From: a virus
Lineage: Duplodnaviria > Heunggongvirae > Uroviricota > Caudoviricetes
Direction: 5' to 3' (one strand)
Length of the DNA: 64,000 nucleotides
Virus record (IMG/VR): IMGVR_UViG_3300018080_000120
Part shown: one piece after another, positions 5,302-64,000 of the stretch
How the letters are laid out: each line of letters begins with the position of its first letter
Numbering within the stretch: the first letter of the stretch is position 1
Translations under genes and position numbers: made by a program
The notes under the pieces: generated by a model
Told to the model about the DNA's origin: nothing
Seen by the model: the letters and a program-made list of their open reading frames with translations, nothing else
Databases searched by the model: none

Positions 5302-5335
5302 TCACTAATAAATAAAAAGGAGGTTTTATTCTATT

Positions 5336-5788: not shown

Positions 5789-5888
5789 GAATGCAAAAAA
5801 ACATAGGTATATTAATAATAGTGATATTTATTATCCTATGGATAATTGAAGGATAAACTATTGCCATATTTGGAGAAAAGAGGAAAAT

Positions 5889-24844: not shown

Positions 24845-24855
24845 GGAGATTTATA

Positions 24856-25104
24856 ATGTCTGAACCTGAGAAAATAGAGAAAGAAGAAAATCTCGGCTTG
24901 ATATATGCTGAATATAAAGCCAGAATCGTACAGCGCGATAAAAGTGGCAATATGATATCCATCTTCACTACCTGGCGGGAAGATTTCATTTCAAAGATGA
25001 TAGAAGGATCTAATCTCAGCTTTACCAAGGGAGAAAAATTCCATATCGAAATAGTTCCTGAAACAGAAGATTTTCAGCATATATCTGACGATTTAGATAT
25101 CTAA
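24856..25104 (+). CDS. hypothetical protein
   Basis: 82 aa. Confidence 0.5.
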   Translation: MSEPEKIEKEENLGLIYAEYKARIVQRDKSGNMISIFTTWREDFISKMIEGSNLSFTKGEKFHIEIVPETEDFQHISDDLDI

Positions 25105-25119
25105 TGGAGGAAATAAGAA

Positions 25120-29725: not shown

Positions 29726-29932
29726 ATGACGGCCAGAAAATTACCAACAATCGAAAAGTGGGGAGAAACTTACTACATAGATCATCGGTTAGGTGAATTG
29801 AGAAATGTGGAAAATCCATGGGACGTTGTAAATATTGATAATTGTCCTGATGAAGAAGAATTCTTTAACATTATGATGGACGCTGTATCCATAGAAAAAC
29901 ATGAAGACACTGAACTCAATAAATGGGGGTAA
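29726..29932 (+). CDS. hypothetical protein
   Basis: 68 aa. Confidence 0.45.
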   Translation: MTARKLPTIEKWGETYYIDHRLGELRNVENPWDVVNIDNCPDEEEFFNIMMDAVSIEKHEDTELNKWG

Positions 29933-29934
29933 AT

Positions 29935-30366
29935 ATGCTGTTAGCTGTTTACGGAAGTTTTCGAAAAGGTGAAAGCCGTGCCCACGTTCTCGATGAATTG
30001 AGAGCAAAGGGTAAATCAGAACTCGCTGAAATTCCAGGAGTTAAACTGTATGTCATGGGTTATGTGCCTGGTGCAAAGGTAACATATGATCTTGACGATA
30101 AAGCGGTGGTTGAACTGATATATGCACATCTTTCTAAGAAGGAAACAGAAGATCTTCTGGAAGAGCTGGACCGCATTGAAGGTGTCAAGCACGGCTTGTA
30201 CCAGAGAAATTATATCATAACTCAATTAGGCGAGGCTCTTATTTACACATTCTGTGGTTCGGTAGAAGGATCTGTAGAGATAACCGATTGGCATGAATGG
30301 CAAGGTAGAAGCGAAAGAGAAAAAAGAAAAGCCGTAAGAAATCTTGATGGCAGAGCAATAATGTAG
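29935..30366 (+). CDS. gamma-glutamylcyclotransferase (GGCT/AIG2)-like protein
   Basis: MLLAVYGSFRKGESRAHVL (YGSLxxG motif), LEELDRIEG...YQRNYI (catalytic Glu region). Confidence 0.6.
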   Translation: MLLAVYGSFRKGESRAHVLDELRAKGKSELAEIPGVKLYVMGYVPGAKVTYDLDDKAVVELIYAHLSKKETEDLLEELDRIEGVKHGLYQRNYIITQLGEALIYTFCGSVEGSVEITDWHEWQGRSEREKRKAVRNLDGRAIM

Positions 30367-31538: not shown

Positions 31539-31579
31539 TATAGTTGGTAAATAAAAAAAGAGAAGGAGAAAAGAAGACT

Positions 31580-35777: not shown

Positions 35778-36208
35778 AAGTAATTATCGCTGGTAGTCGA
35801 AGTATAAAAGATTATGCTTTTGTTAGACAAATTCTAAATCATGTATGCCAAATCTATTCAATAATTCCGTCTGAAATAGTCTCTGGAAAGGCGAAAAGGG
35901 GAATAGATAAATTAGGTGAAAGATGGGCGGAAGAAAATGGAGTCCCCGTTAAACCATTTCCTGCGGATTGGGATAATCTGGCAGCTCCTGGTGCAGTTGT
36001 AAGAACTAACAACTTTGGTAAACAATATAACGTGAGAGCTGGATATGACCGCAATCAGGAAATGGCAGAATATGGTGATGTTCTGATCGCTATATGGGAT
36101 GGTGTCAGTAATGGTACTAAGGATATGGTTGAAAGAGCAAGAAAAGAAGGTCTAATAGTCTTTCTTTATAACACATCCATTGACGAATGGAAAATTTGGA
36201 GTGTATAA
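35774..36208 (+). CDS. SLOG-superfamily (DUF2493/YspA-like) protein
   Basis: MKVIIAGSRSI..., GKAKRGIDKLGERWA, AGYDRNQEMAEYGDVLIAIWDGVSNGTKDMVERA match DUF2493 pattern (GSR, G.D, RN..M, WDG.S.GT). Confidence 0.55.
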   Translation: MKVIIAGSRSIKDYAFVRQILNHVCQIYSIIPSEIVSGKAKRGIDKLGERWAEENGVPVKPFPADWDNLAAPGAVVRTNNFGKQYNVRAGYDRNQEMAEYGDVLIAIWDGVSNGTKDMVERARKEGLIVFLYNTSIDEWKIWSV

Positions 36209-39224: not shown

Positions 39225-40637
39225 ATGAATTTTGCAAAGGCTCTACAAGAAAATCGAGTTCTTCAAGAAGCAACTTCTATTTTGAGTAAAATAGAGCAGG
39301 CCGGATATTCTGCTTTTATCGTTGGTGGGGCAGTCCGTGATTTACTAATGGGTAAGGAAATAGATGATGTTGATTTAACCACCAATTGTCCAGTAAAAAT
39401 CCTCGAAGAAATGTTTATTACCTATGACATTGGCAGATCAAAAGATTTTGGTATCTTGTCTATAGTTGGGGATCATGGAACTTATGAAACTGCTCAATTC
39501 CGAACTGATGGTAAATATGAGGATGGTAGAAGACCTAAAGATGTCAAAATAGCAGGCACTTTTCGAGAAGATTCTTTCCGGCGAGATTTTACCGTCAACG
39601 CTATGGGTATAGATAAGAAAGGAAATCTTTTTGATTACGTTGGCGGAAGAGGTGATATTTATTGTCGAAGAATTCGTGCGGTTGGAAATCCAGTAGTGAG
39701 ATTTACGGAAGATCATCTGCGAATGATAAGAGCTCCGAGGTTTGCTTCTAAAACAGGCTTTTCCATCGAAAGGAGTACTCGAATAGCCATAAGAAGGCTG
39801 TTCAAACTAATAAATAATATCACACCTGAAAGAATCCGCTTGGAAATCATAAAAGCTGCAAAGCTTGGTGGAAAAAGATTTGCCAATTTCATTCTTCAGC
39901 TCGACAATTTGAAACTTTTGTCTCGAATTTTACCAGAAGTCCATAATCTAAAATATTTCGAGCACAATCTCCGCCATCATCCTGAGGGAAAAGACGTGCT
40001 TACTCATGTTATTCGGTGTTTGGAAGTCAGTGATGGTGTTGACTATCTTTCACTACTAAGCATTCTGTTTCATGACATAGGAAAAGGGACTTCTTGGCAA
40101 GAAAAAGGTGGTGGGTTTCCCCCAAGTTATCATCGACATGAACGAGCGAGTGCAGACCTCACTCAAGGAATATGTGAGAGGCTGAAATTCAGTCTTTACG
40201 AAACTCGAGCTATGGTTTTTGCCGTCAAAAATCACATGAAGTTTTTTGAAATGTGTGATATGAAGCCATCCAAAATAGCTCGGCTTGTGAACGAGGAACA
40301 TTTCGATATTCTTAAAAGAGTGGCATATGCTGACCAATTTTCTCGTGGCGAAGAATTCATGTATTACAATCAATTCGACAAGTATTTAGCAAAAGCTCTC
40401 AAGCTGAAAAACCAGTGGGAAAACAAAACAGTGGACCACAAATTGAAATTGGTTGATGGCAAGAGGATCATGGAATTGCTGGATATTGATCCCGGCCCAA
40501 TAGTGGGAGAGATCAAAAACGAAGTGGAAGAATATATAATTGATAACTCTATAAACCCAGACGATAAGGAGAAGATAGATGAAATAATTCTGTCTATTGG
40601 AGGGAAAAATGAAAAGCATACTAAGATCGATTCTTGA
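39225..40637 (+). CDS. cca: CCA-adding enzyme / tRNA nucleotidyltransferase with C-terminal HD domain
   Basis: FIVGGAVRDLLMGKEIDDVDLTT (class II NTase head GGxVRD...DxD), FRRDFTVNAM (RRD motif), LFHDIGK (HD). Confidence 0.9.
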   Translation: MNFAKALQENRVLQEATSILSKIEQAGYSAFIVGGAVRDLLMGKEIDDVDLTTNCPVKILEEMFITYDIGRSKDFGILSIVGDHGTYETAQFRTDGKYEDGRRPKDVKIAGTFREDSFRRDFTVNAMGIDKKGNLFDYVGGRGDIYCRRIRAVGNPVVRFTEDHLRMIRAPRFASKTGFSIERSTRIAIRRLFKLINNITPERIRLEIIKAAKLGGKRFANFILQLDNLKLLSRILPEVHNLKYFEHNLRHHPEGKDVLTHVIRCLEVSDGVDYLSLLSILFHDIGKGTSWQEKGGGFPPSYHRHERASADLTQGICERLKFSLYETRAMVFAVKNHMKFFEMCDMKPSKIARLVNEEHFDILKRVAYADQFSRGEEFMYYNQFDKYLAKALKLKNQWENKTVDHKLKLVDGKRIMELLDIDPGPIVGEIKNEVEEYIIDNSINPDDKEKIDEIILSIGGKNEKHTKIDS

Positions 40638-41019
40638 TATGTTGAAAGCGGCTCTTAAACTTGTGCGAACTTTTATACGGCTGTTATTCAAAGCTGTTTA
40701 TCTGTCTCTAAGGAACAGAATTTACAAATTGTTAGCGCGTTTTCTCATGAGCAAGTATTTTCTGTTCCTGGCGAAAATCTATTATTCAACAAAATGGGTC
40801 ATACCATATAATAGAGCTAAAGTCTGTATGGCTTATCGCTTGTACGAAGGCAGCGAACTTTATCGGCAGCGGTGCATTCAAGTAAACCCGCATTTTGCTG
40901 AAGAGTCCTTTATAACTTGCAAGGGATATAACTATTTCAGGCACAAACTTACTAAGATGGACAAGTTGAAAGCTTTGGTAATTCCTTTCAATTATTGCTC
41001 GCCGCCACAGGAGGATTGA
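40609..41019 (+). CDS. hypothetical protein
   Basis: SD ggaggg 5 nt upstream; track ORF from 40597. Confidence 0.5.
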   Translation: MKSILRSILDMLKAALKLVRTFIRLLFKAVYLSLRNRIYKLLARFLMSKYFLFLAKIYYSTKWVIPYNRAKVCMAYRLYEGSELYRQRCIQVNPHFAEESFITCKGYNYFRHKLTKMDKLKALVIPFNYCSPPQED

Positions 41020-41023
41020 TATT

Positions 41024-41227
41024 ATGTCAAAAGACTTGGTCGTCATTGATCCCAAAGTAATAGCAAAAACAATGGTAGATAAATTTGAATTCGACTTTGA
41101 TCAATTAAGAGAAAATGAGTGTGATGGTTGGTCTGATGCAATAATAGACGCTATGCAATATCTTTATGACATCGAAACAAAGGTTTACGAGCAGATGAAA
41201 TCGATATATCTCGGGAGTGGAAAATGA
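41024..41227 (+). CDS. hypothetical protein
   Basis: 67 aa. Confidence 0.45.
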   Translation: MSKDLVVIDPKVIAKTMVDKFEFDFDQLRENECDGWSDAIIDAMQYLYDIETKVYEQMKSIYLGSGK

Positions 41228-41412
41228 TAGAAATAGACGGAAAGATTCATGATAAATATTGTCCATTTCATCATATGCCTTATTTCTCTGGAGATGGATG
41301 TCCTAATTGCCGTAAATTAAGTCCTTCTGTAAAAGAAAAGATTCCTTTAGCAATTCGTATGTCAAATAAAGAAAAGAGGCTTAAAGATGTTCAGGAAGTA
41401 TCCGGAAATTGA
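41224..41412 (+). CDS. zinc-ribbon protein
   Basis: CPFHH...CPNC. Confidence 0.45.
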   Translation: MIEIDGKIHDKYCPFHHMPYFSGDGCPNCRKLSPSVKEKIPLAIRMSNKEKRLKDVQEVSGN

Positions 41413-42355
41413 GAATACTTACAATAGAAAGTTCATAGATAAGTTTATCTATTTGTATCCACAACTTCTTAAGGCACATTATGTGATCTATGAGAAGCTA
41501 CATGGTAGTAATGTACAAATTATCGTTCCCAGTAATGGAGATTTTCAGTTAGGTAAGCGCCACAGTCTAATTGAACCCAATGAAAACTTTTATGGTATAT
41601 GGGATACTATAAAACGTTATTCTCAGCCTATAAACAAAATCTCTGAATATGTGAAGAGATGTGGTTATTCCTATATGAATTACTACTGCGAGTATTTTGG
41701 TGGCGATGGTGAAAGAGAGCCAAGGATCCAAAAAGGAGTAATTTACAACCCTCTACAACAGATTAGATTTTTCGCTGTGGCGATTGAGGGTAGACTTCAG
41801 CCGCCCATAGTTCTTGAAGATATTTTTGACCATTTAGGGCTGAAAGAATTGTTAGTACCAAAAATAGGTATAATAGAAGGCTTGGATGCTGCTTTACATA
41901 TAGATGTAAATATGACTACTTTAATTAATCCTTACATTGAGGATAACTTTTTGGAAGGTGTGGTCATCCAGCCTCATACCAGAACTTTCGTAGATAAAAC
42001 TGGTAAACGTTTCCTTCTGAAGAAAAAACATCCGAAGTTTGAAGAAAGGGGAAAAAGGAAGAAATCAAAGCCAGTAGTTAATGATTTAGACGAAAAGATC
42101 ATTGGTCGGCTTCATGAGATATTTCTTGGATATCTAAATGAAAATAGGCTGCAAGGAACATTTTCTAAGGTCGGAGAAATTCAGGACAAATCCGAGATGA
42201 GCAAGTACATCGAATTTACGATAAAAGATGCCATCAAAGATTTTGAAAAAGATTTCGGCGATGAAATGGATGAAGCTGGGTATAGCCGCTTAGAAAGGAA
42301 GCGTATCTACAAAGGGGCAGGAGTTATTGTGGAAATGCTTAAGCAATATTTATAG
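41387..42355 (+). CDS. ATP-dependent RNA ligase (Rnl2-like)
   Basis: EKLHGSNVQI = ligase motif I (KxHGxN as in T4 Rnl2 KIHGTN); NFLEGVVIQP (motif IV), FLLKKKHPKF (motif V). Confidence 0.7.
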   Translation: MFRKYPEIENTYNRKFIDKFIYLYPQLLKAHYVIYEKLHGSNVQIIVPSNGDFQLGKRHSLIEPNENFYGIWDTIKRYSQPINKISEYVKRCGYSYMNYYCEYFGGDGEREPRIQKGVIYNPLQQIRFFAVAIEGRLQPPIVLEDIFDHLGLKELLVPKIGIIEGLDAALHIDVNMTTLINPYIEDNFLEGVVIQPHTRTFVDKTGKRFLLKKKHPKFEERGKRKKSKPVVNDLDEKIIGRLHEIFLGYLNENRLQGTFSKVGEIQDKSEMSKYIEFTIKDAIKDFEKDFGDEMDEAGYSRLERKRIYKGAGVIVEMLKQYL

Positions 42356-42364
42356 GAGAGAACA

Positions 42365-42655
42365 ATGAAAAGAGCAGAAAAATCAATTCCAAGATTTAGT
42401 GGTACATTGTGGAAAACAAAGATATTTTTCAAAGCATTTTGGAAACATATTATTACGGGTATATTAATACTTCTATTTTTTCTGTGGACACTTGTGAGCA
42501 TTGTTCATAGCATTTCGTCTATTAATAGACAAGATGTCATCGATGGCTCAGCCCGAGCTGTGGTAAAAACTGAAAAATTCTTTGAAGATCTAAAAACAAA
42601 AGTAGATGAATTAAGAAAGGAGAAAAACGATGCAGATAAAAACTATGGGAAGTAG
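42365..42655 (+). CDS. membrane protein
   Basis: TM helix ITGILILLFFLWTLVSIV. Confidence 0.5.
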   Translation: MKRAEKSIPRFSGTLWKTKIFFKAFWKHIITGILILLFFLWTLVSIVHSISSINRQDVIDGSARAVVKTEKFFEDLKTKVDELRKEKNDADKNYGK

Positions 42656-43259
42656 AAGTAAAATGGCGATACTGTGCATATCATACCTGGTATTAATTCT
42701 GACCATTTCGCTCAATTTAGGATGTGCAGGCATGCAATATCAGGCTCCGCAATTGACCACAAAGTCTTGTTCGGAGCTATTTTCGTGGGTAAAGAGTGTC
42801 ATGCCACCGGTTTTCGACGAGGGTTTTGATGAAGTTCCTGAGGTTTACATAGTAAGCCGTGACGAGATAAGAGAAAGGATGGCCGATGCAATAGACAGTG
42901 ATCCGCTGTTCAAAAAGTGGGTAGAAAAATATGGTCGCAAAAGTGCAGAAGAAATGCGCGCTGCTACAATCGAAAACGTCGTCACTCTCTGTCATATGAC
43001 AACATTGAAAATATATGTGGTTGATGGCTTAAGTCCATGCCAAACTGAAACCCAAATTGCCTATGGAATGGCTTACTATCTCATGGTTTCCAAGTATGGA
43101 AGAGGAGATGATTTGTCTTTTGGCCAAGCTTTGATGAGACGGATGTATTATGGAAGAATATCCACCATCATAAAGATGGCTTATTTTCGAACTTTTTGTG
43201 TGAAAGTGGAGACTTCTAAGGAGCCTTCGAAAGAAGCGGGAGAAGGCGATTACATATAA
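42630..43259 (+). CDS. lipoprotein/secreted protein
   Basis: signal MAILCISYLVLILTISLNLGC. Confidence 0.5.
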   Translation: MQIKTMGSRSKMAILCISYLVLILTISLNLGCAGMQYQAPQLTTKSCSELFSWVKSVMPPVFDEGFDEVPEVYIVSRDEIRERMADAIDSDPLFKKWVEKYGRKSAEEMRAATIENVVTLCHMTTLKIYVVDGLSPCQTETQIAYGMAYYLMVSKYGRGDDLSFGQALMRRMYYGRISTIIKMAYFRTFCVKVETSKEPSKEAGEGDYI

Positions 43260-43459
43260 TGGTTGTTTGCGCAAAATGCCACAAAAGGGATTTGTTTACC
43301 ACGCAATGTAAAAGACCTTTAGAAAATCATTCAATTATGATAGCTCCATCGAAATTGGCTGATGGGTGCGACATGTGTGGAAAAAAAGGCAAACTTTACA
43401 TATGTTTGGAATATAACAAAATAAAAAGAGAAACAAATGAAAACATTTATTGCTCATAG
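43259..43459 (+). CDS. zinc-ribbon protein
   Basis: CAKCH...CDMCG. Confidence 0.45.
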   Translation: MVVCAKCHKRDLFTTQCKRPLENHSIMIAPSKLADGCDMCGKKGKLYICLEYNKIKRETNENIYCS

Positions 43460-43468
43460 GAGATCAAT

Positions 43469-44782
43469 GTGTTTGTAATACCGCCCGGATTACTTATAAA
43501 TAGTAATGTAAATGACATAATATTGCCACTAGATTATTTTGGCATACATCTTGAGGATTTCATTGCCAAGCCTATTAAAGTCTGGATGAATAGAGCTCTT
43601 GATATCGAACCGGAATGTTTTGGACAATTAATGAACCTGGCAAATCTGCCGTTCATTCATTCTCATGTATCTCAGATGGCTGATGGTCATAAGGGATATG
43701 GTATGTCTATTGGCGGTGTAATTGCCACAAAAGATGTGATAATTCCTAACGCAGTAGGAAAAGACGTTGGGTGTGGTATGTTGGCTTTCATGTTGACTAA
43801 TCTAACTTTAGATGATATTATGCCCCGAAGAGAAGACATTGTTGCAGAAATTCTCAAAAAGATCCCGGTTGGTTTTGATCACAGAAAGAATCCTTTCCGA
43901 ATGAAAGGATACATCATGACCAAAATAAAGAAGGAGATATTAGAGAGAAGCGCAATAAATGGTATCGGCCATCCCAAAAAGCCTGAGCCTCCTGTTTTTG
44001 GAAAGGAAAAGGAAAGAATAGAATATCAAACTGCAACCCTTGGCGGAGGGAATCATTTTATTGAAATTCAGAAAGACGAAGAAGGCCATCCCTGGATAAT
44101 GATTCATTCAGGAAGTCGTAATTTTGGCTCCAGAGTATGTGGTTATTACGACAAAATTGCCGCAGATATAAATGATAAATACTATTCTCAAGTGCCAAGA
44201 AAATGGGAGCTTGCATTCATACCGAGAGAAGATCCTTTGTTCAATTATTATTGGTATGACATGCAATGTGCTTTGTATTTTGCCTATCTAAATAGGTTAT
44301 ATATGCATTTTGTGATTGTGGAAGATGTATTACCTGCCATATTCGGCAAAAGGACAGGATATACTGCACCTATTAATATCCATCATAACTATGCGTCTCT
44401 TGAAAATCACTTCGGGAAAAATGTGTTCGTCCACCGGAAAGGTGCGACCCAAGCAAAGAAAGGACAAACTTGCATAATACCTGGATCAATGGGTACAAAT
44501 AGTTATATTGGAAAAGGTTTGGGGAACAAAGATTCATTCGAATCTTGTTCTCATGGATCTGGTAGGGCTCTTCCTCGCAATAAGGCTTTGAAGAAGTTTA
44601 CCAAAGAACAAGTTCTTGCTTATTACAAAGAAAGAGATATTGTGCTGGGTGTTAAGGATCTTGAAAAGATCGCAGCTGAATGTGATTGGGCTTACAAAGA
44701 TATCAAGGACGTAATGAAAAATCAGGAAGACCTTGTAAAAATTGTCCATGAACTGACACCAGTTGCAGTCGTCAAGGGATAA
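43469..44782 (+). CDS. rtcB: RtcB-family RNA ligase
   Basis: IPGSMGTNSYIGKG, CSHGSGR, VFVHRKGAT, GGGNHFIE match RtcB conserved motifs. Confidence 0.85.
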   Translation: MFVIPPGLLINSNVNDIILPLDYFGIHLEDFIAKPIKVWMNRALDIEPECFGQLMNLANLPFIHSHVSQMADGHKGYGMSIGGVIATKDVIIPNAVGKDVGCGMLAFMLTNLTLDDIMPRREDIVAEILKKIPVGFDHRKNPFRMKGYIMTKIKKEILERSAINGIGHPKKPEPPVFGKEKERIEYQTATLGGGNHFIEIQKDEEGHPWIMIHSGSRNFGSRVCGYYDKIAADINDKYYSQVPRKWELAFIPREDPLFNYYWYDMQCALYFAYLNRLYMHFVIVEDVLPAIFGKRTGYTAPINIHHNYASLENHFGKNVFVHRKGATQAKKGQTCIIPGSMGTNSYIGKGLGNKDSFESCSHGSGRALPRNKALKKFTKEQVLAYYKERDIVLGVKDLEKIAAECDWAYKDIKDVMKNQEDLVKIVHELTPVAVVKG

Positions 44783-44808: not shown

Positions 44809-45270
44809 ATGTATTACACATACGATGAGGCTTTGAATAGAATAGAAGAATTCATGATGAAAAGTGGTCTTCGATATTTCTGTACGAAGGTTTGTAAAGG
44901 CGCTTGCTGTTCTGGTTGTTATGAAAGTGATAAGGCATGCCATAAAAATGAAGGCCGGAGATTATCATGTTCCATTTTTCTTTGCTTGCAATTGGTCAGT
45001 ATAGCATTTTCTTCCGAAGAAAGAAATGAGTTTCTCGAAGTGAAAGGCCATTGCTTAGATGTGATTGACAGGAATTTAACAAAAGGCAGTCAATATTTTG
45101 ATGTACATACAAAGACATTACAGAACAAATGTAAATTTAATTCTGCTGTAATAGACAAACTGGAACAAATAAATACTTCCAAAGTCAAATATAAAGTAAT
45201 GAGTATGAGAGCACTTCTTAATAGGATGGCTGAGCGCGCTCTATGGAAGAAGAGAAAAAATGAAGCATAA
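44809..45270 (+). CDS. Cys-rich hypothetical protein
   Basis: CKGACCSGCYESDKACH. Confidence 0.5.
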   Translation: MYYTYDEALNRIEEFMMKSGLRYFCTKVCKGACCSGCYESDKACHKNEGRRLSCSIFLCLQLVSIAFSSEERNEFLEVKGHCLDVIDRNLTKGSQYFDVHTKTLQNKCKFNSAVIDKLEQINTSKVKYKVMSMRALLNRMAERALWKKRKNEA

Positions 45271-45826
45271 AATAATAACATTAATGATAATAGCGGCAAT
45301 TATTTATTCTTCTGCCGCTGCCGCACAAAACCTGGAAGTGATTGTGCCTGATTATAAAGTCAGTGCTTTAACACAGGCTATTATTGATTTACATCCAAAG
45401 ATAGATTCGGTGATTGCAAATAAAATTGCTTATTGTGTTATGTCAGAGTGTACAAAGAAAGATCTTGAACCCGCACTCATAACTGCATTAATTTACGTTG
45501 AATCCACTTTTAATCCACTGTCAGAAAGCAAAAAGGGAGCATGTGGATTAATGCAAGTTCGATACTCAATTTGGAAAGAAACTGACATTCTGATTAAGAA
45601 CAACGTAACTTCACGAGATCAATTATTTTGGATAGAAGCCAATATAAAGTGTGGAACAGACATCTTTCTAAGATATTATGAAAGGGCGGAAGGGGATATA
45701 GGCAAAGCTTTATACAGATATAATACTGGCAAAAGCTTGCCTGGTAAAACTAAACCTACAAAGATAAGGTATATAAATAAGGTGGTATATACTGCCTATA
45801 TTATTTTGTCAAAAATAGGAGGTTAA
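45260..45826 (+). CDS. lytic transglycosylase (SLT domain) with signal peptide
   Basis: ESTFNPLSESKKGACGLMQV = SLT catalytic motif (E-S...GLMQ). Confidence 0.85.
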   Translation: MKHKIITLMIIAAIIYSSAAAAQNLEVIVPDYKVSALTQAIIDLHPKIDSVIANKIAYCVMSECTKKDLEPALITALIYVESTFNPLSESKKGACGLMQVRYSIWKETDILIKNNVTSRDQLFWIEANIKCGTDIFLRYYERAEGDIGKALYRYNTGKSLPGKTKPTKIRYINKVVYTAYIILSKIGG

Positions 45827-45832
45827 GAAAGG

Positions 45833-47122
45833 GTGATGAATTTCGGAAACTTAAACAGAAAGTTATTAAGGAAGGTTTGGGAAAGGGAGATGGAATTTGC
45901 TATGTTAGGAGGAGACCCTGAGTTCTTTGTTGCAAATAAAAAGGGCAAAATTCTTCCAGCGGACAAATTTCTTCCAAGTAAATATAAACCTTACAAGGTA
46001 AATGCGATAAGTGATTCAAAAGACAAAGAATGGCAAAAGAATCGCATTTATTTTGATGGCATTCAAGCCGAAATGGCGGTAGCGCCATGTACTTGTAGAG
46101 AAGATTTGCTATCTAATTTCTATAATTGCTTGAGAGGGGCAGAAAGAAAGATTGGAACCAACCAGATAATTCTGAAGCCTTCGGTTAAAGTTGATTTCAA
46201 AACCATCGAAGAGGCTGACCCCGAAGCGAGGATATTTGGGTGTGACCCTGATTTTAATGCGTATACCCTTACTCAGAATACTCCAGAAATGGATGCTTCT
46301 CGTCATCCATATCGATATGCTGGCGGGCACATTCATCTTGGTATAATTAAAAACTATCTTGAAGAGATCCCAGAAAATCAACGCGTGATAGCAATGGAGC
46401 CTGAAGGGCATATTCGTCTCGTGAAGTTCCTGGATGTTATGGTTGGTATTCCTGCTTTGTTGCTTGATAATGTACCTGGATCAAAGAGGAGAAGATCAAA
46501 ATACGGTAAGGCTGGTTGTTTCAGACCAACACCATACGGTATAGAATATAGAACTTTGAGCTGTTGGTGGCTTAAGTCGCCCATTACTGCGTCCTTAGTT
46601 TATGGCCTCGCAAGAATGGCATGGAGTCTGTGCATACAAAAGCTGGACGAAGAAGTAAGAGAAGCCGCAGGATGCGCTGAGGAGGATATCAGAGGAATTC
46701 TTGATTCTGGTGATGTAAAAGCTGCCACAAAATTGTGGGAAAATCATTTAGGTCCTCATATAGCTGGTATGTATAGTGAAAGTGAAAATCCCCTGCATAT
46801 AGGAGCATTCACTTCTCCCGATTATGCTTATTTGGACCCCAAATGGGAACCGTTAAAAGGAAGTAGACCCAGTCTTCTAGCTGGTAGAGCGTTAGACCCA
46901 AAAGAGGATGGCCTTCCAGTCTTCACTCTTGCAGCTTTTGAATATATGAGGAAGAACGGAATTCACAGTGTCATAAATGAAGATGTCAAGACAGAATGGG
47001 ATATAGATCAGAGAAGAGCTTTAGAAGCTCCAAACAGCGGAATGGTTGAAGGCTTATATGAAAAGCTACGCTTTCATCCAGATTTCCATAAATTCCAAGA
47101 ATCTTTTCTTGGAGCATTTTAA
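45833..47122 (+). CDS. glutamine-synthetase-like amidoligase superfamily protein (paralog A)
   Basis: LGGDPEFF N-terminal metal-binding acidic motif, YAGGHIHLGI (HxH), shared with 62027 product (GCDPEFFL, FHIHFGLP, ELRP). Confidence 0.4.
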   Translation: MMNFGNLNRKLLRKVWEREMEFAMLGGDPEFFVANKKGKILPADKFLPSKYKPYKVNAISDSKDKEWQKNRIYFDGIQAEMAVAPCTCREDLLSNFYNCLRGAERKIGTNQIILKPSVKVDFKTIEEADPEARIFGCDPDFNAYTLTQNTPEMDASRHPYRYAGGHIHLGIIKNYLEEIPENQRVIAMEPEGHIRLVKFLDVMVGIPALLLDNVPGSKRRRSKYGKAGCFRPTPYGIEYRTLSCWWLKSPITASLVYGLARMAWSLCIQKLDEEVREAAGCAEEDIRGILDSGDVKAATKLWENHLGPHIAGMYSESENPLHIGAFTSPDYAYLDPKWEPLKGSRPSLLAGRALDPKEDGLPVFTLAAFEYMRKNGIHSVINEDVKTEWDIDQRRALEAPNSGMVEGLYEKLRFHPDFHKFQESFLGAF

Positions 47123-47140
47123 TTTCAGGGAGGATAAGAG

Positions 47141-47410
47141 ATGAAAAGAGTGATAGTAGGACTATTAACAAAAGGTCAGGTGCTCACGGTAGGAGAAACG
47201 GCTTATCAGGGCCTCGTAATAAAAACCATCCAATATCGGCAAAATGGGCAGGATAAAATAAATGTTGGTACTCCAGGATATCGTGTTGAGATGGCCGATG
47301 AAAACACTTCATTGAATTTGTTCGTGCCAGAAAGAGATACAGAAGGTGCTCTGTTTATTGAGGAGAAAACCAAAAAGGGGGATGAAGTGGAGGTAGCCAG
47401 TGCAGATTGA
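47141..47410 (+). CDS. hypothetical protein
   Basis: 89 aa. Confidence 0.5.
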   Translation: MKRVIVGLLTKGQVLTVGETAYQGLVIKTIQYRQNGQDKINVGTPGYRVEMADENTSLNLFVPERDTEGALFIEEKTKKGDEVEVASAD

Positions 47411-48155
47411 TAAAAAACACAATGTAGTTATTTTAAACAATGACTATTTATATGCAGGGCCGTTCGAAGATTCTGCGAATATCTCATTTCATATAGACGA
47501 TATTGTTCCTGGTAAAACAGACCTGGTTCTTTTTACAGGCGGCGCTGATGTCCATCCAATGCTCTACAAAGGAAGAGACTGTGGCATCTCAGCGACCAAT
47601 ATTGGAAGGGATGGTAAAGAAAGGCACATCTTTAACTTTTGTAAAAAGCATGGAATAAAAATGACCGGAATCTGTAGGGGATTTCAGTTCCTAAATGTAA
47701 TGTGCGGCGGGTTCATGTATCAGCATATAAATAATCATGGTGGCTGTTGCCATCCAGTGAAATTTCACGATGCAGAATTTATCGTGACTAGCACTCACCA
47801 TCAGTTGGTGGGTCTTGGAGAAGGATCTATTCCTATGGCATGGTCATCGGAACGAAGATCTAACGTGTATTATGGTCCTCAAGGAAATAAGGTTTCTCCG
47901 CCAGAAAGAGAGATGGAGGCTGCAATATTTCCTGAAGAAATGGCGATGGGTGTGCAGTACCATCCCGAGATGATGTATATCAATGAAGAAGGTAGAATAC
48001 ATTACGAAAAGATGATAAATGACTTTATCTGTTTAGAGATGAGTGATTTTGTCCAAAAATACACCAAAATCAATGGAGGAAAAAGATGGCTCCAAAAGAT
48101 ACGGAAGGCGATGTCAAGAACGAAGCCATTGAGGTTGTCTCAGAAGAGCAATTAA
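47400..48155 (+). CDS. class I glutamine amidotransferase-like / gamma-glutamyl hydrolase (peptidase C26, COG2071) protein
   Basis: GICRGFQFLNVMCGG (nucleophile Cys), VTSTHHQLV, GVQYHPE (His-Glu). Confidence 0.85.
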   Translation: MQIDKKHNVVILNNDYLYAGPFEDSANISFHIDDIVPGKTDLVLFTGGADVHPMLYKGRDCGISATNIGRDGKERHIFNFCKKHGIKMTGICRGFQFLNVMCGGFMYQHINNHGGCCHPVKFHDAEFIVTSTHHQLVGLGEGSIPMAWSSERRSNVYYGPQGNKVSPPEREMEAAIFPEEMAMGVQYHPEMMYINEEGRIHYEKMINDFICLEMSDFVQKYTKINGGKRWLQKIRKAMSRTKPLRLSQKSN

Positions 48156-48880
48156 CCGAGGAAAGTAAGAAGGTAGATGTATTAGATTCTAACTTTCCTC
48201 TATTTAAAAGACTTAGAGAGGAAGCTCCAGGTACCCATAAACATACTCAAACATTAATGAGTATGATAGACAATGTTTGTGCAGCTTTGGGGATAGAAGG
48301 CAGATCTTTAAAAATGGCTGCCATGTATCACGACATTGGTAAACTTTGGGCACCAACAATCTTCTCTGAAAACCAAATTATGGATGAGAATGTGCATGAT
48401 GGATTAGAACCTTGGGTAAGCTATCATTTGTTAACTCGGCATGTCTCTGATTCAGTTACCATTCTTATGGCCAATGATTTTCCCAGCGAGGTGATAAAAA
48501 TAGTCAGCCAACATCATGGTAAATCCATTCTAAAAGCCATCTATGACAAAGCTGTAAAGGCGAAAGGCCGGAAAAGAATAAAAATACCTATGAATGATTT
48601 CCGGTACAAAACCGAAAAGCCCTCCTCTTTAGAATCACTGATTCTAATGCTATGCGATAGCATTGAAGCAAGATCGAGAGCAGTTTACGGCGAACAGAAG
48701 AAAAATGTTGACCCGGCTGTTTTTGTGCTGGATACTTTCAATAGCATTATGGCAGATGGTCAGTTTGATGAGGTTGAAATAAGACTAGGGCATATCAATA
48801 TAATTCAAGAAGCTTTGATATCTGATGTTGGTGCCAATTATCACAAAAGGGTAGAATTTCCTGGAGATAAAAAGCTTTAA
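48086..48880 (+). CDS. HD-domain phosphohydrolase
   Basis: HTQTLMS...AAMYHDIGK...QHHGKS...LMLCDSIEA = H..HD..H..D pattern; 70-nt overlap with upstream gene. Confidence 0.65.
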   Translation: MAPKDTEGDVKNEAIEVVSEEQLTEESKKVDVLDSNFPLFKRLREEAPGTHKHTQTLMSMIDNVCAALGIEGRSLKMAAMYHDIGKLWAPTIFSENQIMDENVHDGLEPWVSYHLLTRHVSDSVTILMANDFPSEVIKIVSQHHGKSILKAIYDKAVKAKGRKRIKIPMNDFRYKTEKPSSLESLILMLCDSIEARSRAVYGEQKKNVDPAVFVLDTFNSIMADGQFDEVEIRLGHINIIQEALISDVGANYHKRVEFPGDKKL

Positions 48881-53090: not shown

Positions 53091-56000
53091 TTGGGAGAAA
53101 ACATTCAAGGCAGGACAGAGAGTTTGGTTAATGACATAAAATGTGAATTTAACCGACAAAAGGAATATCTTAAGTCCAATGCTGAAATGGATCTTCAAGT
53201 CGCTGATGATCTGCTGAAGATAACTTTTAGCGACGGTAATATCTCTCAAACTCTTTCTATTCCTCTTCCTACTATAAATGAGAAAGGACTTAATCTCCTA
53301 AACAATAACGATGTAACCAGAGTGATGTGTGATTATTGGTTGGAGAGAGAACAAAAACGCTTGAATTATCACGATGTTATCCGAGTGATATTGTGTGGTG
53401 AAATAAATGAAGTAATGCCACATAGGTCAAGTATGGGATCTCTTCTGAGTCGAGTAATAAAAGCATTTAGTCAGAACGCAGTACCATATATGGTCAATTC
53501 TATTCAGCGACTCGTCAGTGAAATTGTCAACGTAATGCCGCTTCATGAAACGGACATGAATAGTTGGGCAATGAATCATCGATTGATAATTATAGACCCA
53601 TTATTTAACGCCCTAACTGATCCAAATGACAGGCTTGAATATCAAGTCGAAAAGAACAAAAAGTATTATAAAAAGTTTGGATGGAGTACAATCGGCCTAT
53701 CTGAAGGAGTCTTGTCCGATAAAAACTTCATTCTAACAACTGATCTTAGAAAACTGACTCCATATGGATGGTATCATAATCCGCAGAGAAATCTTTATTC
53801 CACTCTTGGAATGAAAGGTGATGAGCTTCCAAAAGTAAGATCTCGATCTGAACACGAGCTCATCAAAAGAGGTATTCAACGAAAAGGATGGAATCTTGTC
53901 ACTGCAATAATTGACACTCCATTGGTATTTGAAGACCAAATTCTGGTTGACAAAAGACATGCTGGTCTTTTTCATACTGTGGAAAAAAGATTTGTCGTTT
54001 ATGGCGATAAAATAATGATTAAAAAGGGCGACAAAATTTCTACAGACGGCGTTCTCGGGATATCTAATGACAATGAAAAAGTTCGGATGACATTGAAATG
54101 CGATGAAGCTGAAATTACAGATGTCAAGAAAGAACTGGCAAATGTCGGCGGCGAAGAAGTGGTAACGACTGTTATTAAGGTCAAAGGTAAAAGATATTTC
54201 CGGGATGGCACCAAGTTTTCCAATCTTCATGGAAATAAAGGAATTGTTCGTATGGTAGATCTCGGTTATGCAATAGACCCGAGAGATGGAAAGAAAGTCC
54301 CGATTGATGTTATGATTTCTGCCACATCCATTAACAAAAGAGCCAACTTCGGTCAAATACTGGAAGCTCTGTCCAGCAATCTTATTCCTGAGGATGCAGA
54401 GTATTTGATAATAGAAGATGATCATCAAACTAATAGAACAAAAGTGGAAAATGCTCTGGAAACTGCTGGATTTCCAAAAGATGGTACGTGGATGATTGAT
54501 ACTTATTGCGGTGAACATTCTGCAATAGTTGGCAAAATGTTTTGGGGAGTGACCAAAGATCCAGAAGACCAATTGTGGGAGGGTAATCGAACTCTTGTTA
54601 CAGATAATCGAGAATTGAGAACTTCTGGGCTCAAATTTAGCCATGTTGAATTTAAGGCTCTTACGACTCGGTTTGGCCCTCAAAACGCTGTCACTAAAGA
54701 AATACTTTCGCATGCTCAAGGCATGGAAGTTCTTCACGATGAGATAAAGATTTTGAAATCTGCTCATGGAGAACTGCCAGACAACCTTCCTGAAATAGAT
54801 GCTTCTAATGTGGATTTTGTAGATAATAGCAAAGGGATATTTCACACCGCGACGGAAGTTGCTGGAACAGTTGTGGATGAGAGCTTCATGCCTGATGGAT
54901 TCATTCTTAAATTACCTTGTGATTTTCAGGCAATTGTGAATAAAAAGAACCCTGACCATTTCACTTGTGGAATGCCTCAGGAAATAATTGACCCTGAAGA
55001 AAAGAATGTATATCAATATAATAAAATATTTATACCAAATGCTTTGCTTCGTAGATGTTGGAGGCATCCATCTGGTAAATGGGGACTGAGTGTAACGGGG
55101 TCCCTTATAAATCGAATTATAGAATGGTGCCATCGATTCAAAGCAAGCGGTGATGTAAATGACCAAGTGGTCTTAATGAGAGTAATTGCCAGCTATTTTC
55201 GCAATATTGCAAAAATGATGGGGTCCAAAACTGGCGAATTGAGTACTTATGGAATGGCCGTCCGATATCCTTATTCTACTCGAGCAACTGCTGCACTATC
55301 TGATAATTTGCCAAGAGACACAATCGAAATTCATAGGGACATGGCGAACCTATTGAAGGTTAAGACTGGTGATATAGTCATAGCTGAAAGATTTCCCTGT
55401 CTTGGATTTATGTCCATTCGACCACAGTTTGTTAGAGTAACAGACGATCCGCAATGCAAATATGTGATAAGAGTGAGTGGAAATAGTCTGGTATCCATGA
55501 ATCTGGATTTTGATGGAGATACTCTATTTCTCGCAAGTCTTCATACTCCACAAGCAAAAGAAGCGATGCGAAAGGAATTGACTAATTCGAATACATTGTG
55601 CAAACAAGTAATCGAACAAATGAATGCAAAGAAAGTGCCTCAAACAAAGGAAATGAATCTGGATGGCTTCGAAATTCGAGTCTTTCCGCCGCCAACTAAT
55701 GAAGAACATGCTCAAATAGTGAGAAATGCGACTGGTGTGAAAAGCCATACCGGGCCGGTTATCGCACTTGCTTATAATCTCATGCGGATAGTAGAAAGAA
55801 ATGTGCCTTATTCTGATAATACTCAGCATGTTAATCTTGAGGTTCTTCTTGACTTCCTTGGTAATACTGTTTTTAAACAGAAACATGGTATTAAATCCTT
55901 GCAGGAAGAGGCAACAGATGCCATATGCTTGGCCGATGCGGAAAGAATGGTTGAGCTGGGATTTGAAAGAAGCCCAAGTGAATTATTGTGCAGATTGATT

Positions 56001-62026: not shown

Positions 62027-63235
62027 ATGAAGCTTAAAATTAAGGCATCGAAACTGATGTCTAAGAATAAATCTGTCTTGGGATCAATGGAAGATAGGTT
62101 GATTCGTATTCCAGCAGGTCTAAGAGAAGAATTAAATATCAGAACAGGATCTTTTTTGAGACTGAAACAAAAGGGTGGTAGAGAAGCGGTTTTACAGGTT
62201 ATGATTTCTTATCTCGAAGATGCGCTTGAAGATGAAATGCAGGCTTATGTAAGTAAGGACACACATAATTTATTAAAGCTGTCCAAAATAAGTCTGGTAG
62301 ATCCAGCTGATGATATTTTAGTTGGGTGTGACCCCGAATTCTTTTTAGTTGACCTAAAGACAGGTAGAACCCGACCTGCATCCCATTTCTTTCCATATGT
62401 AGGAAAGTTGGGGAGTGATTGTGGTTTGGCAGAACTTCGACCAAGACCAGCTTATTATGAAAAAGATTTAACAGCAAATCTATTAGAGTTAATGGATAAA
62501 GCTTACAAACGTATAGCTGATAGAGTTCTGTATCGAAAAGAAGATCTTGCAATGATAGCTGCATCGCACTTGAATGAAGCATCAGCAGGATTTCATATTC
62601 ATTTTGGTCTGCCCTCAATATTATTAGATGAATCGGATATATCAGGTAAGTTACTGAAAAATATGTCTTATATATTAGATTATTATGTAGGCATTCCGGC
62701 AATTATGCCTGAAGGATCAGAGGACTGTAGAAGAAGGGTATCTGGTTATAGTCAGTATGGAAAACCAGGCGATGTAAGAGCAGATCGCATAACATTGGAA
62801 TATAGAGTTCCCGGCGGACATTTGCTAAGACATCCAGTTCTAACTGCTGGTTTATTAGGTATAGGTGTAGTTGTAATGAAAGATATGCTGAGTCGGATAA
62901 AATTATATTCAAATGAATATAGAAACAAAAATATATTCTATGAATATGACCAGTTAAGAGATTTATATCCTAATTTACCAGATCGGGTGGAGATTTACAA
63001 AAGCATAGTGTCTCCAGATACAAAAAACGCAATTCGTCATTTGGATAATATAGTTGATGATTTATCTAAAATGATAGGATTTTCTGAAAACTCAGAAGCC
63101 GTCTTGAATTATTTTAAATATGTATTATCTTATATAAGAGGAGAGAAAAAGTTCGGCGGCAATTTAGCAATCAATTGGAGGTTATTTGATGAGAAACAAC
63201 CGGAACAAGTGGCGTTTTTACAATCCGCCTTCTAA
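62027..63235 (+). CDS. glutamine-synthetase-like amidoligase superfamily protein (paralog B)
   Basis: VGCDPEFFLVD, AELRPRP, AGFHIHFGLP; paralog of 45833 product. Confidence 0.4.
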   Translation: MKLKIKASKLMSKNKSVLGSMEDRLIRIPAGLREELNIRTGSFLRLKQKGGREAVLQVMISYLEDALEDEMQAYVSKDTHNLLKLSKISLVDPADDILVGCDPEFFLVDLKTGRTRPASHFFPYVGKLGSDCGLAELRPRPAYYEKDLTANLLELMDKAYKRIADRVLYRKEDLAMIAASHLNEASAGFHIHFGLPSILLDESDISGKLLKNMSYILDYYVGIPAIMPEGSEDCRRRVSGYSQYGKPGDVRADRITLEYRVPGGHLLRHPVLTAGLLGIGVVVMKDMLSRIKLYSNEYRNKNIFYEYDQLRDLYPNLPDRVEIYKSIVSPDTKNAIRHLDNIVDDLSKMIGFSENSEAVLNYFKYVLSYIRGEKKFGGNLAINWRLFDEKQPEQVAFLQSAF

Positions 63236-64000
63236 ACCAGAACTTTCAGCGGAAGAAGTGAGATATTGGAAACAATCACTGAAAAAATTGCTGAAAGTCG
63301 GCATGGAATTTGAGTTCAATCTGCCAGAGCAAAAGAAAGGTGGATGTAAAGGAGATAACATTGATTGTGTGTGCTTAAATATAAAGAAAGGGTGCTGGGA
63401 AATTTGTCAGAGACTACCAGTTTGTAGAAAGATAAAATCCTATGACACATGTGATAATAAAAAGAAGACATGTACACCTGAAAAATGTGAGTCTTGCAAG
63501 AGTTTCAAGTTCAAATGTTTAGGAACAACATGTGCAGATTTTTGTAGTATGTGTTTCGCATGTGAAGAATTTGCCAAAAACTGCGAAAAATGCCCGAAAA
63601 GATTCGATCCCAACAAAGATCCGCGCCAGATAAGAGAAAATCTGGTCAAATATTTTGAACCAAGTCATAACTATGGACTTGTTAGCCCGTCTGGCGTTGT
63701 TGAAGTCAAAGAGGATGGGTCTTTGAAAGGTGACCGTGGGGCCGAAATCATAACTGTTGGTAGAAGAGTGGACTATTGGGAATTCTACGGCATGGCAAAG
63801 AACATCATTGATAGATTGACCGCTGACGGCGGATATCTAAATGAGAGATGTGGTTCTCATATGCATCTTTTGACCAGTTATTATGGTGAACATGATACTG
63901 GTGGTAGAGGAATGAATGAGATGGAAAAAGACATGCCAGAAATAATACTGGCCAATTTCCATCAGTTGTGTCGAAGATATCAAAATGCCATAACCTGGAT
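63189..64000 (+). CDS. amidoligase-like protein with Cys-rich insert (partial, continues beyond window)
   Basis: VGMEFEFNLPE (E-x-E N-terminal motif of GS-like amidoligases), CGSHMHLL (HxH), long CxxC-rich insert; not in ORF track because no stop in window. Confidence 0.45.
   Translation, partial: MRNNRNKWRFYNPPSKPELSAEEVRYWKQSLKKLLKVGMEFEFNLPEQKKGGCKGDNIDCVCLNIKKGCWEICQRLPVCRKIKSYDTCDNKKKTCTPEKCESCKSFKFKCLGTTCADFCSMCFACEEFAKNCEKCPKRFDPNKDPRQIRENLVKYFEPSHNYGLVSPSGVVEVKEDGSLKGDRGAEIITVGRRVDYWEFYGMAKNIIDRLTADGGYLNERCGSHMHLLTSYYGEHDTGGRGMNEMEKDMPEIILANFHQLCRRYQNAITW

Follow-up and report, generated by a model that had tools for sequence, protein, structure and literature searches.

Linked genes for a long-form ligase and a C26-type amidotransferase very probably form part of a split variant of the phage amidoligase module

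A phage module for 'peptide-bond synthesis' was reportedly predicted by Iyer et al. in 2009. The module is already catalogued, with a Pfam family of its own and hundreds of annotated phage genomes; it has been described as seven ORFs for peptide-bond synthesis with host peptidoglycan as the proposed target (PMC6256558), and has been proposed to alter the cell wall, blocking superinfection (PMC10580990). The literature that we searched offers annotations and speculation on its members, and we found no experimental function there for any of them. Comparable pairs are known from cells—PuuA/PuuD of E. coli and PauA/SpuA of P. aeruginosa, in which a GS-superfamily ATP-dependent ligase is accompanied by a C26 hydrolase for removal of the gamma-glutamyl group. 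The initial annotation of the phage DNA considered here had proposed an amide- or gamma-glutamyl-forming phage module and left its substrate open, in agreement with the two published descriptions (PMC6256558, PMC10580990).

The window, that is, the whole stretch of DNA that was analysed, comprises 64,000 nucleotides, and the genes at the locus are as follows:

45260..45826, + strand: SLT lytic transglycosylase, secreted or membrane-anchored (PF01464, E=1e-16; hydrophobic N-terminus, MKHKIITLMIIAAIIYSSAAAA)
45833..47122, + strand: long-form phiEco32-type COOH-NH2 ligase of GS/GCS2 fold, 429 aa, a predicted ATP-dependent carboxylate-amine ligase
47141..47410, + strand: small orphan ORF, 89 aa, with a beta-rich core and a Glu/Lys-rich tail (GGGAGG ribosome-binding site 8 nt upstream)
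47400..48155, + strand: class-I amidotransferase-fold enzyme of Peptidase_C26/COG2071 type, 251 aa, a predicted gamma-glutamyl amide hydrolase or glutaminase (PF07722, PHROG 7218 and PDB matches)
48086..48880, + strand: PgpH-type HD phosphohydrolase (PDB 4s1b, Lmo1466, E=3.8e-35 over residues 35-259; PF01966, 1.4e-11; TIGR00277 HDIG; GGAGG ribosome-binding site)

As the initial annotation had noted, exactly one gene, the 89-aa ORF, separates the ligase and C26 genes. GGAGG-type ribosome-binding sites precede each of the ligase, small ORF, C26 and HD genes; the C26 gene begins with GTG and shares 11 nt with the small ORF, and because the HD start overlaps its 3' end by 70 nt, the C26 and HD genes are probably translationally coupled. 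The stretch from 45833 to 48880 (3,048 nt) was found with zero mismatches in contigs of two other sequencing runs. None of the ligase, small ORF and C26 proteins has a hydrophobic signal-like N-terminal segment, sigma-70 promoter-like sites did not exceed their frequency in shuffled sequence, and PADLOC returned no defence-system match among these three proteins and the two paralogs described below.

The ligase contains DPEFF (aa 28-32, nt 45914-45928) and HIH (aa 166-168, nt 46328-46336), the motifs from which it had been called an amidoligase, and that assignment is supported by PF14395 (E=2.8e-17, 63.2 bits, cut-off 25) and PHROG 3815 (4e-44). The fold of the protein is glutamine-synthetase/GCS2-like, and its C-terminus forms a helical extension of ~125 aa. 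Across 24 homologs at 42-66% identity, D28 and E30 are kept in at least 90%, and Q78, E80, H166, H168, E238 and R240 are invariant. These residues appear to be of the metal/ATP-site type, with catalytic roles that we infer from their conservation; by family, fold and intact residues, the protein is probably a carboxylate-amine ligase, for which ATP-dependent activity is predicted. YbdK (PDB 1tt4), a cellular GCS2 ligase that acts on its own and forms gamma-Glu-Cys weakly, is 13-14% identical.

The C26 protein carries GICRG (aa 90-94, nt 47667-47681), HHQ (aa 133-135, nt 47796-47804) and HPE (aa 188-190, nt 47961-47969), as reported initially; calling these the exact signature of gamma-glutamyl hydrolases was an overstatement, because all three are common to class-I amidotransferases in general. 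Cys92, His188 and Glu190 are invariant in all homologs covering these columns (39-42 of 44, the remainder ending at contig edges), and the triad aligns with the ICRG and HPE motifs of 3fij and 7d4r. Peptidase_C26 (PF07722) matched at E=1.5e-18 and 67.8 bits (cut-off 20.5), versus 4.9e-6 and 26.8 bits for the generic GATase family (PF00117), and PHROG 7218 matched at 1.1e-29; the family matches of both enzymes are thus not attributable to chance. The only PDB sequence matches at E<0.01 were 3fij (Lin1909, uncharacterised) and the gamma-glutamyl-amine hydrolases 7d4r (SpuA) and 6vtv (PuuD), these last two being weak (1e-6 and 3e-3); chains of PabA, TrpG, GuaA and CarA gave no match in the same search. 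Every match to NCBIfam equivalogs fell far below cut-off, with glutamine-hydrolysing GMP synthase the best, and the protein scored 23 bits on the PuuD equivalog model (cut-off 266) and 26 bits on that of gamma-glutamyl-CDP-amidate hydrolase (cut-off 250). On the Pfam and PDB matches, those to NCBIfam being ambiguous, the protein appears to group with C26 hydrolases and not with biosynthetic GATases; clustering with PabA/TrpG, the outcome that the initial annotation had named as contrary to its reading, was not seen. As far as residues go, the Cys-His-Glu triad and the motifs do not separate a hydrolase from an ammonia-donating glutaminase.

The small ORF between the two enzymes is a constant 3' neighbour of the long-form ligase: it has positional homologs in all five sister contigs, and its family HMM finds it in 51 of the 58 loci where downstream DNA is available. 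Family-database searches returned no match, and only two relatives were found among 5.8 billion proteins. Four long repeat proteins matched among 1.84 billion representative proteins (2e-5 to 7e-4), but we regard these as spurious, since the family profile gives them negative scores. In comparisons, the small ORF resembled neither the ~200-aa ORF found after short ligases, nor the C-terminal extension of the ligase, nor the ORF before GAT-I. The tail shows no consensus in a profile alignment of 61 sequences, nor is a C-terminal Gln/Glu conserved, six full-length ends being different (e.g., SAD, ANG, EIS, KEG, AED and RIK). In most relatives, a further ORF of 300-400 aa (MID), absent from this window, precedes the C26 gene; it gave no match to PDB sequences, and its resemblance to the ~310-aa ORF before GAT-I in known phages is at motif level and not significant (hhalign, 19.6%).

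The order SLT, ligase, small orphan ORF, (300-400-aa ORF), C26, PgpH-type HD and NUDIX is kept in ~80 metagenomic contigs that represent one uncultivated clade of large phages from sediment. The C26 gene lies 3' of the ligase in 30 of 30 related metagenomic loci having at least 2.6 kb of downstream DNA and in four of five sister contigs, usually with one or two genes in between; sister contig L012 has the ligase without C26. The HD gene comes after C26 in 23 of 28 loci, and C26 is coupled more closely to this gene (and, in relatives, to the MID ORF) than to the ligase; the HD protein is a candidate member of the ligase/C26 pathway. The SLT gene, immediately 5' of the ligase here and in 20 of 32 related loci with sufficient upstream DNA, is a putative member of the system by context. 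Further enzymes encoded nearby, besides HD and NUDIX, are RtcB, Rnl2 and a CCA-adding enzyme. A scan of IMG/VR with the ligase alignment returned no matches, and one of GTDB genomes matched just two contigs of MAGs, binned as Atribacteria and Deltaproteobacteria; these are probably mis-binned phage DNA and therefore no pointer to the host.

The pairing recurs outside the clade. GenBank holds 313 phage records with the ligase, most of them without C26, and 60 with a C26 homolog—mostly Zobellviridae-type podophages of ~45-51 kb and phiM6-like phages, with one crAss-like phage—and the amidoligase module was also present in each of the latter records that was inspected or compared against the list of ligase matches. 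The clade HMMs matched Zobellviridae phages at 1e-30 to 1e-37 (PF14395 ligase) and 1e-35 to 1e-44 (GAT-I), with orthology-level matches for both in O4, KZY1 and Phriendly. The two genes lie within two to three genes of each other in Zobellviridae, abut in crAss-like phage cr108_1 and are likewise clustered in phiM6-like Rhizobium phages.

Further candidate members of the gene set lie elsewhere in the window:

29923..30366, + strand: GGACT/AIG2-like gamma-glutamyl(amine) cyclotransferase (PF06094, E=4.5e-7; PHROG 2520, 3.3e-7)
62027..63235, + strand: second ligase paralog of the PF14395 family, 402 aa, its N-terminal segment weakly AbrB-like (PF14395, E=6.3e-24, 85 bits)
63189..64000, + strand: GS/GCS2-fold protein, putatively Amidoligase_2-like, the N-terminal 270 aa of 549 aa, cut at the window end

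The gene at 62027 is the first of a second, larger amidoligase cassette; its product carries DPEFF (nt 62330-62344) and HIH (nt 62594-62602) and aligned with the ligase family at 98.5% by hhalign (E=3.5e-15). The 549-aa protein contains an insert with 16 Cys and ends in a winged helix; its family gave no match to PF14395 by hhalign and none to PDB sequences by profile. Both genes had been taken for paralogs of the ligase, which holds for the one at 62027, whereas the one at 63189 belongs to a different GS-like family (putatively Amidoligase_2-like); a lack of GS-like fold in the three proteins, the other outcome named as contrary, was not what we found. The GGCT-like cyclotransferase recorded near 29935 is the PF06094 protein, possibly a distant member of the same chemistry set, and GGCT genes adjoin the module in Aeromonas phage LAh_8, Rhizobium phage RHph_N3_19 and sister contig L011. 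The protein at 3282 had also been counted in the toolkit; it lies 42 kb from the pair and has no link to it. Beyond the window end, the same phage genome (L004) encodes two GATase_6 (GAT-II) proteins (272 and 700 aa) and an ATP-grasp protein of 359 aa that matches RimK and PHROG 2599. The toolkit of the clade comprises four GS-fold ligases (three PF14395 paralogs and the Cys-rich 549-aa protein), one GAT-I and two GAT-II proteins, a GGCT and an ATP-grasp enzyme.

With the PF14395 ligase and GAT-I both found here, and GAT-II and RimK-like ATP-grasp proteins found on L004, we are confident that the pair belongs to the known phage amidoligase module, as a lineage-specific, long-form, split variant with clade-specific partners. 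Like the module of phiEco32 (Kuravirus), PA11/O4, CW02 (Zobellviridae), PhiRIO-1, PhiM6 and cr108_1, it has a ligase of the same family and fold (PF14395/PHROG 3815), and its companions are a C26-like GAT-I, GAT-II, a putative Amidoligase_2-like second ligase, a RimK-like ATP-grasp enzyme and a GGCT. Unlike in those phages, the ligase bears the extra C-terminal extension; it is followed by an orphan ORF of 89-120 aa in place of one of ~200 aa, the two showing no detectable homology; the PF14395 paralogs number three, besides the Cys-rich ligase; and the GAT-I gene overlaps that of a PgpH-type HD protein. The genes also do not form a single contiguous cluster, being split into two clusters 14 kb apart (ligase and C26 at 45.8-48.2 kb, the rest from 62.0 kb, with GGACT at 29.9 kb).

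The best explanation overall, which we put forward tentatively, is that this split module combines an amide-forming ligase with a C26 hydrolase, in the manner of PuuA/PuuD. It is likely that the two enzymes act in a joint pathway; if they do, hydrolysis is the somewhat favoured role for C26, and ammonia donation a less probable one. The ligase would use ATP to activate a carboxylate to an acyl-phosphate and then join an amine to it, yielding an amide or isopeptide bond, most likely of gamma-glutamyl type, and the C26 Cys-His-Glu amidohydrolase would cleave a gamma-glutamyl-type amide of the same pathway; following PuuA/PuuD logic, a gamma-glutamyl (or similar) group installed by the first would later be removed or turned over by the second. 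The remaining steps might be supplied by the cassette at 62 kb, with its two more GS-like ligases, two GAT-II and the ATP-grasp enzyme. Wholly speculatively where the substrate is concerned, the target could be either a small molecule of the cytoplasm or a precursor of the cell wall. Unlike PuuA, the ligase is PF14395/GCS2-like and falls outside the GlnA type (PF00120), and unlike in the Puu pathway, oxidase or dehydrogenase genes are absent here. That the ligase occurs without C26 in L012 and in most of the GenBank records is easier to reconcile with an optional eraser than with an obligate subunit that donates ammonia. Gene order within the clade could be mere inheritance, a point that we count against the PuuA/PuuD-like mechanism, together with the closer coupling of C26 to the HD gene and the MID ORF than to the ligase.

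A second reading, which we regard as unlikely but worth serious attention, is glutamine-dependent amidation, in which C26 would be an ammonia-supplying glutaminase and the ligase (or MID/PRE in relatives) would activate a carboxylate for conversion to a carboxamide, for example on a peptidoglycan precursor, as MurT/GatD does on lipid II, or in the manner of asparagine synthetase-type enzymes. The class-I GATase fold with its intact triad would suit such a role, as would the top NCBIfam match (albeit far below cut-off), the GAT-II proteins of the module, the abutting genes of cr108_1 and the SLT gene beside the ligase. The lipid II D-isoglutamate amidotransferase MurT/GatD likewise couples ATP-driven carboxylate activation to a class-I glutaminase to form an amide, and the phage module, too, has been proposed to act on the cell wall (PMC6256558). 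The phage pair differs from it in having a GS-fold ligase and a C26-type GATase. MurT itself adopts a Mur-ligase fold, and its partner GatD is a GATase of CobB/CobQ type. Against amidation stand the far higher score for Peptidase_C26 than for generic GATase, the solved-structure matches confined to C26 proteins of which the characterised ones are hydrolases, the ligases that occur without GAT-I in L012 and most ligase-bearing GenBank phages, and the one or two genes that usually separate ligase and C26; moreover, we know of no C26-family member that acts as an ammonia-channelling subunit.

That the two genes are functionally unrelated neighbours, their order inherited in one clade and each enzyme acting alone, is improbable. 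Core blocks of phage genomes keep their order by descent, synteny here spans the entire stretch from SLT to RNAP in sister contigs and related loci, C26 overlaps HD and not the ligase, and L012 does without C26; yet orthologous ligase and GAT-I genes cluster again in Zobellviridae, phiM6-like Rhizobium phages and Crassvirales, whose genomes are otherwise different, and GenBank phage C26 homologs are concentrated in groups that bear the amidoligase module.

We give little credence to PafA/Dop-Pup-like tagging, in which the ligase would conjugate or modify the small ORF product, or add residues to its acidic tail, and C26 would trim or deconjugate. Equally doubtful is its broader form, that the long-form ligase and small ORF might be a phage protein-modification pair placing an amino-acid or isopeptide mark on or via the acidic tail, with C26 as eraser. 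The small ORF lacks the conserved C-terminal Gln/Glu through which Pup is conjugated, we saw neither proteasome nor Mpa genes, and identity to PafA/Dop is 10-11%. If the broader form were true, a bacterial virus would possess something akin to Pup tagging or polyglutamylation, and the protein-modification set would lie within a counter-defence island with PgpH-type HD, NUDIX, NAD-salvage and RNA-repair genes.

Also very improbable is that the pair decorates a DNA base, nucleotide or RNA with an amino-acid-derived group: the nucleotide and RNA enzymes nearby, and the reported association of amidoligase and glutaminotransferase genes with 5-HMUDK/aGPT-Pplase clusters (PMC8989533), are countered by the lack of any hydroxymethylase, 5-HMUDK, aGPT-Pplase, TET/JBP or DpdA match among the ~50 window ORFs scanned, a part of all its ORFs. 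Thymidine-hypermodification clusters are a suspected precedent for base decoration by amidoligases and GATases. To our knowledge, the same module occurs in phages with no reported DNA hypermodification.

The question of what the module does is no easier to test here than in the cultured phages O4/PA11, CW02 or phiEco32. What this locus adds is the linkage of the ligase with a C26-type GAT-I across four unrelated phage lineages, two constant partners—the small orphan ORF and, in relatives, the 300-400-aa ORF—and an uncultivated clade of sediment phages with an unusually heavy investment in amidoligase chemistry.

The ligase locus lies in a phage-like window, with nearly all long ORFs on the plus strand and a GC content of about 0.38, and its central part comprises three genes:

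45833-47122, +: PF14395 COOH-NH2 ligase, 429 aa, with DPEFF at aa 28-32 (nt 45914-45928) and HIH at aa 166-168 (nt 46328-46336)
47141-47410, +: small ORF, 89 aa, the sole ORF between the ligase and the next gene
47400-48155, +: class-I GATase ("C26"), 251 aa, with GICRG at aa 90-94, HHQ at aa 133-135 and HPE at aa 188-190

All of the motifs reported in the initial annotation, as well as the single intervening gene, were recovered where it had placed them. GGAGG-type ribosome-binding sites precede each of these genes and the HD-domain gene that follows (48086-48880, +), and assembly error does not account for the arrangement, since 45833-48880 matches contigs from two other sequencing runs base for base. 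Public annotations of this phage omit C26 (L100 6897-7573; L101 7652-8328), so that no gene is called from the small ORF to HD; the ORF is intact in both contigs and identical to the window's, and its GTG start and overlap with both neighbours are the likely reason it goes uncalled. A terminator-like hairpin (47093-47114, +; 9-bp stem, then a T-rich tail) falls within the ligase gene's final 30 nt, just 5' of the small ORF.

The C26 protein scored 67.8 bits against Peptidase_C26 versus 26.8 against the generic class-I GATase model, and matched PHROG 7218, "glutamine amidotransferase" (1.1e-29). Among all PDB sequences, its matches at E<0.01 were exclusively C26-type—Lin1909 (3fij), P. aeruginosa SpuA (7d4r and variants), and E. 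coli PuuD (6vtv)—and alignments to the 3fij, SpuA, and PuuD chains bring the ICRG and HPE motifs into register. Cys92, His188, and Glu190 are invariant in all homologs from the clade, an uncultivated large-phage group, that cover those columns (39-42 of 44). NCBIfam matches were all sub-threshold (GMP synthase, 3e-6; gamma-glutamyl-CDP-amidate hydrolase, 8e-6; PuuD, 5e-5). Given these results, the predicted membership in Peptidase_C26 is sound, yet comes without a nameable equivalog. The initial annotation had taken the motifs as an exact gamma-glutamyl hydrolase signature; Pfam and PDB favour the C26 type, but motifs and triad alone give no such signature, as the triad by itself does not separate hydrolases from ammonia-donating glutaminases.

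We compared gene order across five sister contigs (one of 270 kb) and 80 metagenomic loci, mostly from JGI metagenomes, using HMMs built from window and sister-contig proteins. A pattern scan of IMG/VR did not find the clade, and GTDB genomes represent it by two MAG contigs only. The order is almost invariant: SLT, ligase, small ORF, a 300-400-aa ORF (MID), C26, HD, a 167-aa ORF, and NUDIX. SLT lies upstream of the ligase in 20 of 32 loci, C26 is present in all 30 loci that retain 2.6 kb or more of downstream sequence, and HD follows C26 in 23 of 28; sister contig L012 retains ligase and small ORF and lacks both C26 and HD. The small ORF is fast-evolving and constantly follows the long-form ligase within the clade, being HMM-detected in 51 of the 58 loci that have downstream sequence, with some ORF at that position in the remainder. 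It has just two relatives among 5.8 billion proteins; matches to long repeat proteins in a 1.84-billion-protein library were rejected, as the family profile does not reproduce them. MID, missing from the window and present in 25 of 30 loci, overlaps the C26 start (L007 11518-12627, L010 9613-10536, L011 9770-10774) and shares weak similarity, at the level of motifs, with the ~310-aa ORF preceding GAT-I in Zobellviridae and crAss-like phages. The HD protein, whose start overlaps the C26 gene end by 70 nt, is a soluble protein homologous to the HD domain of PgpH, the Listeria phosphodiesterase for c-di-AMP (225 residues matched in PDB 4s1b at E=3.8e-35), making it a candidate phage cyclic-nucleotide phosphodiesterase.

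Searching GenBank by tblastn, we found ligase homologs in 313 phage records, among them Bruynoghevirus-type Pseudomonas phages, Kuravirus, Zobellviridae, and Aeromonas Lahexavirus, and C26 homologs in just 60. In Zobellviridae (O4, KZY1, Klyazma) the cluster reads ~310-aa ORF, GAT-I, GAT-II, PF14395 ligase, ~185-aa ORF, Amidoligase_2, ATP-grasp; Rhizobium phage RHph_N3_19 carries a similar cluster plus GGCT, although no PF14395 ligase is named in its deposited annotation, and in crAss-like phage cr108_1 ligase and GAT-I directly adjoin. Clade ligase HMMs match these known-phage ligases at 1e-30 to 1e-37, versus a weaker 1e-13 for the window's own paralogs, and clade C26 HMMs match the GAT-I proteins at 1e-35 to 1e-44; the pair is thus the counterpart of PF14395 ligase and GAT-I in the known phage module, to which it very probably belongs. 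The literature searched gave no experimental assignment of function for this module, whose genes have been taken as nitrogen-metabolism AMGs (PMC10945688) or linked, in a repeated idea, to cell-wall modification that blocks superinfection (PMC10580990).

A second, larger amidoligase cassette spans the window end (window 62027-64000 plus L004 10001-19189, a contig of the same genome), in this order:

PF14395 ligase, 402 aa
GS-fold ligase, 549 aa (full length at L004 11163-12812; first part at window 63189-64000)
GAT-II, 272 aa
unknown protein, 327 aa
GAT-II, 700 aa
PF14395 ligase, 448 aa
RimK-like ATP-grasp, 359 aa

The 549-aa protein, which has over 500 homologs but belongs to no Pfam family, ends in a winged-helix domain and carries, after the first catalytic strand, a low-pLDDT insert of ~85 residues whose 16 invariant cysteines probably form several zinc sites. 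Residues 26-55 of the first ligase (62027-63235) weakly resemble an AbrB/MazE-like swapped hairpin (PF04014, E=0.012; TIGR01439, E=0.0085; both below cut-off).

Enzymes of the GS/GCS2 superfamily use ATP to turn a carboxylate into an acyl-phosphate, which an amine then attacks, and the ligase would form an amide in this way. Because of this chemistry, and because hydrolysis of gamma-glutamyl amides is the activity of every characterised C26 enzyme known to us (PuuD, SpuA, gamma-glutamyl hydrolase, plant GGP1, Cj1417), our favoured, if tentative, reading is that a gamma-glutamyl-type amide is installed and later removed by C26. The target would be either a small molecule of the cytoplasm or a precursor of the cell wall; no hydrophobic N-terminal signal-like segment was found in the ligase, small ORF, or C26 proteins. 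Further steps of ligation and amido transfer would come from the second cassette, and GGCT genes would add a second gamma-glutamyl-cleaving activity. Glutamine-dependent amidation is unlikely: the ligase frequently occurs without GAT-I, as in L012 and most of the ligase-bearing GenBank records, a pattern more in keeping with an optional hydrolase than with an ammonia-donor subunit that the ligase requires. That ligase and C26 are unrelated neighbours is more doubtful again, since their pairing recurs in unrelated phage genomes, which argues for a shared pathway; we consider a joint role likely. Pup-like tagging involving the small ORF seems very improbable, and nucleic-acid modification, despite the occurrence of genes for amidoligases and GATases in clusters for thymidine hypermodification (PMC8989533), the least probable of all.

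Elsewhere, the window encodes:

3282-4034, +: putative BTLCP/LapG-type cysteine protease
23954-27221, +: radical SAM (23954), NAD synthase NadE (25120), nicotinate phosphoribosyltransferase (26034)
31544-32461, +: SPFH/Band-7 protein, early-gene region
34884-35777, +: patatin-like phospholipase, same region
35732-36208, +: YAcAr SLOG-domain protein
39225-40637, +: CCA-adding enzyme with HD domain
41387-42355, +: Rnl2-type RNA ligase
43469-44782, +: RtcB
53091-56390, +: 1099-aa RNAP protein

The first had been called transglutaminase-like; its scores point to a protease (Peptidase_C93, 1.8e-7; NCBIfam LapG, 4.6e-8, below cut-off) and not to a transglutaminase that forms cross-links. The radical SAM, NadE, phosphoribosyltransferase, and YAcAr genes look like an NAD-salvage or counter-defence set. 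An RNA-repair set (39225-44782) lies just upstream of the ligase locus, and RtcB, CCA-adding-enzyme, and GGACT genes again precede the ligase in some sister contigs. The RNAP protein, kept at the same position in sister contigs (1096-1161 aa), matches both beta (Rpb2_6) and beta-prime (Rpb1_2) catalytic domains, which suggests a fused single-chain multisubunit-type polymerase. GC is 0.45-0.47 in the first 4 kb versus about 0.38 elsewhere, and the 1.3-kb AT-rich stretch that comes next (4035-5335; GC 0.32 over 4001-6000) has no ORFs other than small ones, along with AT-rich repeats in direct and inverted orientation; this may mark the border of a module, or a region for regulation or replication origin.

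This kind of module is already known, since its family is listed in both Pfam and PHROG and phage genome annotations already show ligase and GAT-I together. New here are the long-form ligase, its constant small orphan ORF, and the relatives' MID; the predicted translational coupling of C26 to a PgpH-type HD protein; and the splitting into two clusters with multiplied ligase paralogs. A specialist is unlikely to find the variant surprising; what the module makes is a genuine question, for which cultured phages are better suited.
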